The position numbers and the translations under genes are program-made. From positions 1-55,677 of IMG/VR virus record IMGVR_UViG_3300004353_000017: a stretch of DNA of 55,677 bases. One strand, written 5' to 3'. Shown in pieces: positions 30,176 through 32,240 of the stretch. This stretch comes from a virus (taxonomy: Duplodnaviria; Caudoviricetes). Numbering within the stretch: position 1 is the first letter of the stretch; the number at the start of each line of letters is the position of its first letter. The notes below the pieces were generated by a model, which saw only the letters and a list, made by a program, of their open reading frames with translations, had not been told where the DNA came from and did not search any database.

Positions 30176-30508
30176 TTAGAGATATACAGTAATATCCTTT
30201 TCATCCGCTCGCAGATCAATGCAAGCGGATTTTTTTATTTCATCATAAATCAACTGATCAACTTGTACTTCGTTTAGAGAATCATAATCAATTGGTTCCG
30301 GAGTTTCAAAGTGAAATTCTAAATAAGTAATTCCGGCACTTGCTGCAGTCATATCATCATCGATATAGCATTCGGGATTATCTAATTCCGGTCCGAAATA
30401 TTCTATTCCGGTTAAACCACGATTAAGCAAATTAGTTACATAGTCAACACTAACACCATTCTCGAGTGATACTTTAGCAGTTGATAATATGAGTGTGTGA
30501 TTTTTCAC
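30176..30508 (-). CDS. Acidic hypothetical protein; possible fourth gene of the COMMD-like operon
   Basis: 110 aa, GTG start 27 nt after the ART-like gene; about 22 D/E versus 7 K/R. Confidence 0.6.
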   Translation of the reverse strand: MKNHTLILSTAKVSLENGVSVDYVTNLLNRGLTGIEYFGPELDNPECYIDDDMTAASAGITYLEFHFETPEPIDYDSLNEVQVDQLIYDEIKKSACIDLRADEKDITVYL

Positions 30509-30535
30509 TATTAAGAAATTTCTTTTGAAGAATTA

Positions 30536-30958
30536 TCAAGCCCATGAACCAATTTGAATCATTAAAACCCTAGATTCTGCATTGTTTTCTGATTTATCGC
30601 CCTCAATAACTGAGTGCGCTCTATTATTTGGTTGACCCCACATTTCGGGATTATTATATAATGGATCGTGTAGAACTACCTGGGTAACATCAGTTCTAAT
30701 TTTACCGACAATCATATTCCAAAATCTAAAATTATTTGGGTCTTTAAATTCCCCATTAGCTTTAGTTTGTCTACTTATAATTTCTTTTGAAACTTCAATG
30801 CTTGCATATCTACACCAATCGCATGATAAATTTGGTCCATCTTTTGGTGTATTTAAAAAAGCAATTGCTTTCGGTTTGTCATCTTTTGACGAAACAAAAC
30901 TTTTTGCTACCCTAACGTTGACCTCACAATTATCAGTTATGTCTTCTTTACTCCACAT
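30536..30958 (-). CDS. Hypothetical protein, putative ADP-ribosyltransferase-like fold
   Basis: V.VR (beta-1 Arg), AF, LSCDW (Ser motif), VG.IR, HDP, N.AH; start coupled by TGATG overlap at 30956-30960. Confidence 0.5.
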   Translation of the reverse strand: MWSKEDITDNCEVNVRVAKSFVSSKDDKPKAIAFLNTPKDGPNLSCDWCRYASIEVSKEIISRQTKANGEFKDPNNFRFWNMIVGKIRTDVTQVVLHDPLYNNPEMWGQPNNRAHSVIEGDKSENNAESRVLMIQIGSWA

Positions 30959-31584
30959 CACGCTAAACATTTCATAAATGAAGCTATAACTTCATTAATA
31001 TCATATTTTTCTAAACTTCCCTTTATAATTGTTTTACTAGATAAATCATGTCCGTAATAATGCGCGCATAGTTCGTCACAATTTAAAATATTAATTAACA
31101 GAATATTATTGTTATGCCTCCATTCTAAGTCAATAGATCCGTCTCTCCCAATATTAATTTCAGGGGAAGATATGTACACATCAAACTGAATAAGCACATA
31201 TTCGGAATATTTAATTAGAATATTAATTGCTCTATCATAAATCATTTCATTAAAGCCAATAGCACCTTCACTATCCCAATCATCTTTATAAAGTTCCAAT
31301 GACCGAGACTCCACAATTGTTGAATATATATTTGAAATACGTTCATCAATATAAAACCTTCCTAATGTAGTTTTTATAGGTGGATTTCTATAAATTATTC
31401 CATCTGATAAATGATTTCTAAAACCTAAGTTAAAATCAAATACGGGGACTGTAAATACTCCCCAATCCTCCTCATGCACAGATATTCTAGGTGACCATTC
31501 TCGAGACTTCGAAAATGTACTTTCATTGTCAGTTAAAGCAATTTTGCTAGAGTGTTTTCTTTGTGGTAATTCTTTTGCTACCAT
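30958..31584 (-). CDS. Hypothetical protein with WDxxGA / P.I....DG.I.LEW motifs
   Basis: DDWDSEGA...PEINIGRDGSIDLEW; coupled to both neighbours. Confidence 0.65.
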   Translation of the reverse strand: MVAKELPQRKHSSKIALTDNESTFSKSREWSPRISVHEEDWGVFTVPVFDFNLGFRNHLSDGIIYRNPPIKTTLGRFYIDERISNIYSTIVESRSLELYKDDWDSEGAIGFNEMIYDRAINILIKYSEYVLIQFDVYISSPEINIGRDGSIDLEWRHNNNILLINILNCDELCAHYYGHDLSSKTIIKGSLEKYDINEVIASFMKCLA

Positions 31585-31586
31585 AA

Positions 31587-32240
31587 TTAAAATATTACTT
31601 GTAGTACATCTTTATACTCATCTCTAATCTGCATGTCATTCTTAATCGCTTTTTCTATTTCAATTTTAATCTTTTTTAAATCATCTACATCGACAGTAAA
31701 AGTGATTTCTTTTAAGCTCTCATATTTAGTATATTCAAATTGCATTTTATGAAATATTATTGCGGAACGTTTATTAATATCCTCACCTTCATTAAATAGC
31801 AATCTTATATCAGAGTTTATATTAAACTCAGTGATGTTATTTCCATTTAAACGTAAAGTTTTCCTTGTATTAATTATTGAACTTAGACGACTATAGTTAT
31901 TCAGTATCGATTTTAAATTTTCCTCTAAAGAATTAATTTTTATCGTTGATAACTCTTCTTTACTTAGATAAATAAAAGCATCTGCTAATCTTTTAGCGAG
32001 TATGTCATTACCATCTTCGTTTTCTTCAAGTAAAGAATTGAAACTTAGTAGCGTTTGTAATAAATCACGTCCGGTATTAACCTCGAGTTGATCGTCGAAC
32101 TTACTTGCAACTTCAACATACTCTACATCGATCGGAAGTACACTAATAGTGGCTATAAGAGATTCCATCTGATTACTATTAAATTCCGATATTAATTTAA
32201 ATCCGGGAAAAACCTGATATGGAATATTTATTCTTGTCAT
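31587..32240 (-). CDS. Prokaryotic COMMD-like protein (putative)
   Basis: 217 aa from ATG 32240; helical N-domain then SDIRLLF...AIIFHKMQFEY...EITFTVDVDDLKKIKIEIEKA, the beta-beta-beta-alpha pattern of a COMM domain. Confidence 0.6.
   Translation of the reverse strand: MTRINIPYQVFPGFKLISEFNSNQMESLIATISVLPIDVEYVEVASKFDDQLEVNTGRDLLQTLLSFNSLLEENEDGNDILAKRLADAFIYLSKEELSTIKINSLEENLKSILNNYSRLSSIINTRKTLRLNGNNITEFNINSDIRLLFNEGEDINKRSAIIFHKMQFEYTKYESLKEITFTVDVDDLKKIKIEIEKAIKNDMQIRDEYKDVLQVIF

Follow-up and report, generated by a model that had tools for sequence, protein, structure and literature searches.

The complete virus record IMGVR_UViG_3300004353_000017 (55,677 bases; hereafter the window, meaning this whole stretch of DNA) carries genes for an integrase (731-1930), a tape measure protein, a major head protein, a portal protein, a large terminase, a helicase and an SbcC-like protein, and because of this gene set it is recognized as a temperate tailed phage of the siphovirus type. 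The closest relatives of its cargo proteins are from Flavobacterium. Between its packaging and replication modules lies a putative conflict cassette of three minus-strand genes (g1, g2 and g3), the first of which encodes a relative of COMMD-like proteins from prokaryotes.

The cassette begins with g1 (31587..32240, minus strand), which starts with ATG and encodes 217 amino acids, with a helical domain at the N terminus and a COMM domain at the C terminus predicted by homology. Two nucleotides, TT, separate its TAA stop codon from the ATG of g2 (30958..31584, minus strand; 208 amino acids), a candidate adaptor or antidote with a variable N-terminal portion of about 100 residues and a conserved C-terminal domain. 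The third gene, g3 (30536..30970, minus strand), is a candidate small enzyme-like effector of 144 amino acids, or of 140 if translation begins with MWSK at the ATG at 30958. The TGA of g2 overlaps this MWSK ATG as TGATG, and the alternative start, an in-frame ATG 12 nucleotides upstream, would give a g2/g3 overlap of 13 nucleotides. Beyond the g3 stop codon, 27 nucleotides lead to the GTG of a fourth open reading frame, g4. A first-pass annotation of this DNA had described four minus-strand open reading frames with these boundaries and junctions, and all of them are present in the sequence as described. It had also placed them in an AT-rich block, which the base composition bears out: G+C content is 0.284 at 31001-32000 and 0.27-0.30 at 32001-35000, staying within 0.27-0.33 over the interval from 30 to 35 kb, compared with about 0.34-0.40 elsewhere in the window.

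The proposal that g1 is COMMD-like was corroborated by full-length homology to a bacterial COMMD-like protein of solved structure. In a phmmer search, g1 matched PDB entry 9q6a_A ("COMMD-like protein MBK5214510") with an E value of 4.6e-13, residues 4-211 aligning with residues 23-233, and a profile built from the g1 family matched 9q6a at 1.2e-38 over positions 4-216. Because relatives of g1 from two other loci with the same three genes match 9q6a still more closely (L029, from Pontibacter, E 9.8e-37; L017, from a Flavobacteriaceae genome, E 1.3e-29), MBK5214510 falls, by these scores, inside the g1 clade. The alignment to the solved protein runs the full length of g1 through both the helical N-terminal (HN) and COMM parts and is poor in gaps, and from it we infer the HN + COMM architecture of g1, the COMM domain in this family being built of three strands and a long helix. 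Judged by this homology, g1 is a true prokaryotic COMMD-like protein. Nothing significant was found for g1 in Pfam (noise only at E<=1), NCBIfam, PHROGs or PADLOC. The Pfam COMM_domain model likewise gave no g1 match at E<=1, which is consistent with the identity of <20% to eukaryotic COMMDs stated in PMC13392464. Five relatives of g1 were present in a large protein collection. A further match in G099 (E 4.1e-4, to part of a 686-residue frame) was discarded as spurious, as a scan of that locus gave no g1, g2 or g3 signal.

MBK5214510 comes from a Flavobacteriaceae bacterium and has been solved by crystallography and cryo-electron microscopy as homo-octameric and homo-decameric rings (PDB 9q6a, 9q6c and 9q6d; Liu et al., Nat Commun 2026, PMC13392464). 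The main text of that paper calls the function of prokaryotic COMMD-like proteins unknown and reports that no partner could be predicted from the neighborhoods studied, which were those of Myxococcota (with type VI secretion-like genes), Chlamydia and Halobacteria; it also states that other Commander subunits have no prokaryotic relatives. That main text never uses the words phage, toxin or defence, and neither pairing with g2- and g3-type genes nor carriage by phages is described there. When we scanned genomes with the g1 pattern, the locus of MBK5214510 itself was not among the loci returned.

Recurrence and exchange of the three genes

Searches based on g1, g2 and g3 gathered 68 loci. The order g1-g2-g3, with all genes co-oriented and separated by gaps or overlaps of a few bases, was found with unrelated flanks at 20 loci in addition to the window, for a total of 21 (the 20 are L001 to L005, L010, L017, L018, L020, L025, L026, L029, L037, L049, L050, L056, L057, L059, L063 and L064). 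Because both order and tight spacing recur at 20 other loci with different flanks, the trio recurs far more often than expected by chance. The first-pass annotation had proposed a co-inherited three-gene module, and the genes do co-occur in other genomes. The trio occurs in Bacteroidota of five or more families and on two viral contigs besides the window (IMG/VR L010 and L059), and its hosts include Flavobacterium, Psychroserpens, Salinimicrobium, Aequorivita, Gillisia, Chitinophaga silvisoli, Pontibacter and Aquiflexum, as well as metagenome-assembled genomes (MAGs) of Chitinophagaceae and Balneolaceae. No match to g1, g2 or g3 was found by tblastn among 50,697 GenBank phage records. Genes of mobile elements stand next to several of the trio loci: a rolling-circle replication protein (Rep_ORF2-G2P) adjoins the trio in L017 and L057, and an AntA/KilAC phage antirepressor flanks it in L059. 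In L005, a short Salinimicrobium contig, the gene immediately downstream of the trio (2038-2964) encodes a DpnII/MboI-type restriction endonuclease (Pfam E 2.2e-53).

Within the trio, g2 and g3 form the core pair. The g3-based search returned 21 loci, and g2 lies directly upstream of g3 in 19 of the 19 that are informative, L035 and L036 having been left out of the count as the contig end cuts g3. Eight loci, mostly from Chitinophagaceae and Saprospiraceae, have a short g2 (142-185 amino acids) and g3 without g1. Conversely, L007, L009 and L056 have an intact g2 but only a truncated g3 or none. A toxin would be expected never to occur without its antidote, and the antidote to survive loss of the toxin; the asymmetry between g3 and g2 is of this kind.

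Searches with g1 alone also returned a consistent arrangement, with g1 leading a tight three-gene set in 15 of 15 distinct loci. The identity of the downstream pair varies, however, being PDC-M32-like (the g2-g3 type) in 11 loci, an unknown protein followed by a DUF7689 protein in three, and two membrane-type proteins in one. Cassettes of the DUF7689 type (L055, 415-2148; L058, 1480-3081; L067, 2989-4663) are found in Bacteroidota and in one betaproteobacterium, and that of L058 is flanked by an IS1595 transposase. Their middle protein (148-189 amino acids) has a variable N terminus and a conserved C-terminal domain with the pattern W..EET...WG. The third protein, identified by Pfam at an E value of about 1e-30 in two loci and by alignment in the other, has an invariant Cys and two His. 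These partners were considered as divergent forms of g2 and g3, and this was rejected on hhalign probabilities of 0.1% between g2 and the middle protein and 0.2% between the g3 family and the DUF7689-like proteins. In a Rhodocyclaceae MAG (L068, 2965-4635), the two genes behind a COMMD-like gene encode small proteins, one with 2 hydrophobic segments and the other with 3. The betaproteobacterial g1 genes of L067 and L068 are sisters in the g1 tree (support 100/98), yet they lead different downstream pairs. The g1 tree has long branches and is poorly resolved at depth, and only this pairing and that of the window with L001 were used. One ring gene combined with three kinds of downstream pair is a pattern typical of immune systems.

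Relationship of g2 and g3 to PDC-M32

The nearest known pair to g2 and g3 is PDC-M32. The PADLOC PDC systems are presented in the text of Payne et al. (bioRxiv 10.1101/2024.01.29.577857) as 145 untested "guilt-by-embedding" candidates whose genes are embedded in BREX, DISARM and type I restriction-modification (RM) loci, and PDC-M32 is mentioned as a hypothetical system on a Sinorhizobium prophage in PMC12429752. Seven full-length canonical pairs were present among 401 Bacteroidota genomes; in loci L039 to L045 the A protein has 383 amino acids and the B protein 122-139.

The 18 relatives of g2 found in a first search share with it a C-terminal domain of about 110 residues with the motifs WDxEGA and PEINxxRDGSIDLEWR, and W103, D104, G149 and W155 are invariant or nearly so in the family alignment. 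The WDxxGA...DGxIxLEW motif that had been noticed in g2 is thus real and conserved across the family. There was no match to g2 in Pfam, NCBIfam or the PDB sequences. It does match the PADLOC model for PDC-M32A (E 1.3e-4), with residues 124-199 aligning to profile positions 288-362 of 375, that is, to the last quarter only, and 17 of its 18 relatives match the same model. Comparison of the g2 C-terminal domain with the C terminus of canonical PDC-M32A by hhalign gave a probability of 44% and an E value of 2.3e-4. The N-terminal portion of g2 differs in length with the presence of g1: 86-155 residues precede the WD motif in 17 trio loci and 38-80 in eight loci without g1, the start being taken in each case as that of the longest open reading frame. 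For this count, 18 trio loci and nine loci without g1 were examined, and one of each was dropped (L003, a false regex match, and L021, with no match).

Relatives of g3 are far more numerous. A first search found 6, but with a full profile the number of cluster representatives rose to 546 at E<=1e-3, or 165 at the stricter E<=1e-10, and all of these are small proteins. Every one of the 131 aligned members has Ser49 and His119, and Phe38, Trp52, His101, Pro103 and Asn116 are nearly invariant in the same alignment; the motifs LSxDW, HDP and NNxAH pointed out earlier in g3 are therefore real and conserved. Members of the family matching PADLOC PDC-M32B number 21 of the 131 (best E 1.2e-7), and hhalign of the g3 family with canonical PDC-M32B gave a probability of 85% and an E value of 6.5e-6. 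The protein-atlas clusters nearest to g3 and to canonical PDC-M32B score 0.96-0.97, and none of them is named. DUF6098, the nearest named cluster (0.91-0.92, 158-162 shared features), was not used as a relative of g3 and PDC-M32B, as scores in this range often arise by chance and Pfam gave no match to it among the 131 relatives.

The first-pass annotation had also read g3 as ART-like, that is, as resembling ADP-ribosyltransferases (ARTs). ARTs of the R-S-E type have aromatic-Arg and S-T-S motifs, which a segment of g3 loosely recalls: an Arg at position 19 or 20 stands in a segment of the [LV][YF]R type in 120 of the 131 relatives, and the invariant Ser follows about 29 residues later, within h-S-[VTCS]-[DN]-W. 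The Arg does not, however, occupy one fixed alignment column. No conserved candidate for the catalytic Glu follows Ser49, the best being E132, which is Glu in 85/131 members and either Asp or Glu in 89/131 (68%), and the invariant residue is instead His119, within PNNxAH. Neither g3 (at E<=1) nor its 131 relatives (at E<=0.01) matched an ART, RES or other Pfam family, and two g3 profiles (A4 and A6) matched no PDB sequence at E<=10. With no such matches and no conserved acidic residue after Ser49, the ART-like reading of g3 finds no support in sequence.

Profile comparisons point to g2 and g3 as distant relatives of PDC-M32 A and B, the homology of the g3 family with B being supported and that of the g2 C-terminal domain with the A C terminus being supported more weakly. 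Both systems consist of neighboring genes in one orientation, the downstream one encoding a small B-type protein, and this A-then-B order on the same strand is kept by g2 and g3 in the window and in 19/19 informative g3-centered loci. The g2 C-terminal domain probably corresponds to PDC-M32A positions 288-362, and the g3 family appears to be the counterpart of PDC-M32B. In contrast, canonical A has 383 amino acids with an N-terminal part of about 270 residues that g2 lacks, the cassette has a separate COMMD-like gene before its short A, and canonical B has Ser where the g3 family has His101. The g3 of the window itself also has no match to the PDC-M32B model at E<=1. The possibility that g1 and g2 together represent a split canonical PDC-M32A was rejected, since the N-terminal part of canonical A and g1 gave an hhalign probability of 0.1%.

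A third architecture was seen in L047, L048 and L051, where a small protein of 109-128 amino acids is followed by a protein with a PDC-M32A-type C-terminal domain and then by a B-like protein of 123-159 amino acids that ends in the motif N-x-[YA]-H-[SA]-E. The first protein is DUF3467 in L048 (Pfam E 1.4e-6), and those of L047 and L051 are alike by eye only. Together these loci extend PDC-M32 into a much larger family, with 546 B-type clusters and at least three architectures. Two IMG/VR contigs carry a lone short protein with the g2-type domain and no adjacent g3 relative (L011, 6001-6453, 150 amino acids; L012, 5980-6321, 113 amino acids). As pure speculation, these could be orphan phage antidotes against PDC-M32-type effectors of the host.

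The phage slot and its other genes

Two sister viral contigs, L060 and L061, show what else can occupy the position of the trio. Their nucleotide similarity to the window (95% and 86.5%) spans 28366-30507 and ends at the start codon of g4, and upstream of g4 both have different genes, with no g1, g2 or g3. Because sister phages carry other genes in this slot, the trio is a swappable cargo cassette and the slot that holds it is a cargo hotspot, in keeping with the earlier suggestion of a prophage accessory slot. The cargo at L060 (1847-2959) and L061 (345-1895) consists of a protein of 370 amino acids without a Pfam or PADLOC match in one contig and a protein of 516 amino acids with weak pentapeptide-repeat matches in the other. 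The slot in each contig also carries a phrog_4780-like membrane protein.

The acidic open reading frame g4 (30176..30508, minus strand; 110 amino acids, GTG start) adjoins the cassette. Its predicted isoelectric point is 4.08, with 22 Asp and Glu versus 7 Lys and Arg. The only relatives of g4, with 93-95% protein identity, are in L060 and L061, and none was found in the first twelve loci fetched (L001 to L012) or in any of the 20 other trio loci. It had been counted provisionally as a member of the system. Because g4 is absent from the other trio loci and present without the trio in two sister phages, it is a conserved phage backbone gene and not part of the cassette.

On the other side of the cassette, the divergent intergenic region upstream of g1 (32241..32452, minus strand; 212 nucleotides) presumably holds the cassette promoter. 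Within it, TATATTTA, about 22 nucleotides before the g1 ATG, resembles what we take to be the Bacteroidetes -7 box, TAnnTTTG. A sigma-70 scan found 18 sites versus a mean of 17.0 in shuffled sequences, which is no excess, and no terminator was found. A perfect 28-nucleotide palindrome (32400-32427; two 14-nucleotide arms without a spacer) also lies here, between g1 and the plus-strand gene that starts at 32453. The window has no second copy of it, none of the 68 loci contains it, and no equivalent stands upstream of g1 in the 11 other trio loci compared. We rejected it as a feature of the cassette given this single occurrence, and it may be an operator of this phage.

Four consecutive plus-strand genes (32453-35470) follow in the lowest-GC part of the window (0.27-0.30), and all of them encode hydrophobic membrane-type segments. 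The first has a match to phrog_4780 (E 8e-21) and a weak one to SieB (E 0.006), and this cluster beside the cassette may be superinfection-exclusion or membrane cargo. Elsewhere in the window, a plus-strand gene at 29198-29824 encodes an SRAP (SOS response associated peptidase) protein (Pfam E 6.7e-45; phrog_1599), which is kept in the sister phages L060 and L061.

Function of the cassette

Our preferred interpretation, which we regard as evenly balanced, is that 30536-32240 is a mobile toxin-type conflict cassette with a COMMD-like ring as its hub, g2 as adaptor or antidote and g3 as a Ser/His effector. In the mechanism that we propose, g3 would be a toxic enzyme-like effector with its invariant Ser and His. 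The conserved C-terminal domain of g2 would bind g3 and keep it inactive, and the variable N-terminal part, which is longer in loci that have g1, would dock g2-g3 units on the g1 ring, which may serve as an oligomeric hub, sensor or chaperone. If an infecting phage or the element's own loss disturbed the complex, g3 would be freed, and the resulting cell death or arrest could either exclude a superinfecting phage or addict the host to the prophage. A defence or toxin-antitoxin module had been suggested in the first-pass annotation. That suggestion is reasonable given the kinship of g2 and g3 with the PADLOC candidate pair PDC-M32A/B, and the outcome may be either defence or addiction.

Several observations weigh against this interpretation. 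The trio is rare, with g1 present in 7 of 401 Bacteroidota genomes, and none of the genes beside the cassette in the window was identified as a defence gene. PDC-M32, the source of the functional hint, is itself one of the 145 untested candidates. The link of g2 to PDC-M32A covers only about 75 C-terminal residues at an hhalign probability of only 44%, and that of g3 to PDC-M32B exists at the family level only, as the window g3 matches no PADLOC model at E<=1. The N-terminal 100 or so residues of g2 are almost unconserved, which is odd for a docking segment unless they co-evolve with g1 or bind through a short motif. Their greater length beside g1 could also be phylogenetic, since the loci without g1 are mostly from Chitinophagaceae and Saprospiraceae, and the choice of start codon may affect the difference. 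Finally, ring formation by the window g1, binding of g3 by g2 and docking of g2 on g1 are proposals, and the toxicity, binding and anti-phage roles of all cassette members are predicted only.

The same operon could instead be a pure addiction module, a tripartite toxin-antitoxin-chaperone (TAC) set that stabilizes the prophage or island without any immunity role, with g1 as chaperone, g2 as antitoxin and g3 as toxin. We consider this unlikely but deserving of serious attention. It would account for the tight operon, for g3 never occurring without g2 and for g2 being kept where g3 decays, and carriage on phages, Rep-bearing elements and islands flanked by insertion sequences is as compatible with selfish maintenance as with defence. 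In mycobacterial TAC systems, the antitoxin has an extra tail and is protected by a SecB-like oligomer. The cassette resembles them in having three small, presumably co-transcribed genes, with a first protein predicted to be oligomeric, a putative toxin downstream and a middle protein whose poorly conserved extension is confined to loci with the first gene. It differs in that there is no sequence relationship, the TAC chaperone being SecB-like and the TAC extension C-terminal, and the activities of the cassette proteins are putative. Against addiction, the sole functional hint from outside, PDC-M32 with its embedding in BREX, DISARM and type I RM loci, points to immunity. Moreover, Pfam and NCBIfam searches of g2 gave none of the DNA-binding domains typical of antitoxins that autoregulate, and the regions upstream of g1 in 11 loci share no conserved palindrome.

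It is improbable, in our view, that the trio is no toxin system at all and serves the element's own biology, for example as an enzyme scaffolded by the ring that would act on nucleic acid or the cell envelope, modifying them in the lysogen, with the PDC-M32 resemblance irrelevant to immunity. No function has been demonstrated for any of the three families, PMC13392464 calling that of prokaryotic COMMD-like proteins unknown in its main text, and in some chromosomes (L003, L004 and L018) the cassette stands among housekeeping genes. On the other hand, its distribution is patchy and rare with unrelated flanks, the downstream pair is exchanged behind related g1 genes, other cargo replaces the trio in sister phages, and g3 decays while g2 does not. 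Such patchiness, pair exchange, cargo replacement and decay of g3 typify conflict systems and not element housekeeping. Improbable too, given the features of g3 described above, is the model of the first-pass annotation, in which g3 is an NAD-using toxin of the ADP-ribosyltransferase fold gated by g2 and a COMMD-like scaffold.

The first-pass annotation had called the system undescribed, which is right in part: the combination of g1 with g2 and g3 was not found in the papers searched. It does not stand for the parts, since a 2026 paper (PMC13392464) already presents the COMMD-like family, and g2 and g3 resemble an existing PADLOC candidate. In the literature searched (COMMD-like bacterial proteins, PDC-M32, COMMD with phage defence, and DUF7689; the supplementary tables of PMC13392464 and of the Payne preprint aside), we found no COMMD-like gene leading adaptor-effector pairs. 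The cassette thus offers concrete candidate partners for the clade of the crystallized COMMD-like protein and a first testable clue to the function of COMMD-like proteins in bacteria.

We suggest, more tentatively and by analogy, that bacterial COMMD-like rings may be modular hubs of prokaryotic conflict systems, with exchangeable pairs of adaptor and effector and with the N-terminal tails of the adaptors docking on the ring. In the eukaryotic Commander complex, the COMMD ring is a hetero-decamer that functions in endosomal trafficking and holds its partners CCDC22 and CCDC93 through extended, poorly structured segments. Both systems would share a COMM-domain ring, and the threading of partners through it suggests, as a hypothesis only, how the g2 N terminus might dock. 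Unlike the hetero-decameric ring of endosomal trafficking, however, the solved prokaryotic rings are homo-oligomeric (PMC13392464). If the ring is the hub of a toxin-based system, this bears on the origin of the Commander complex: its core scaffold would have its ancestor among the components of mobile toxin or immune cassettes, and the crystallized Flavobacteriaceae protein would have identifiable natural partners.

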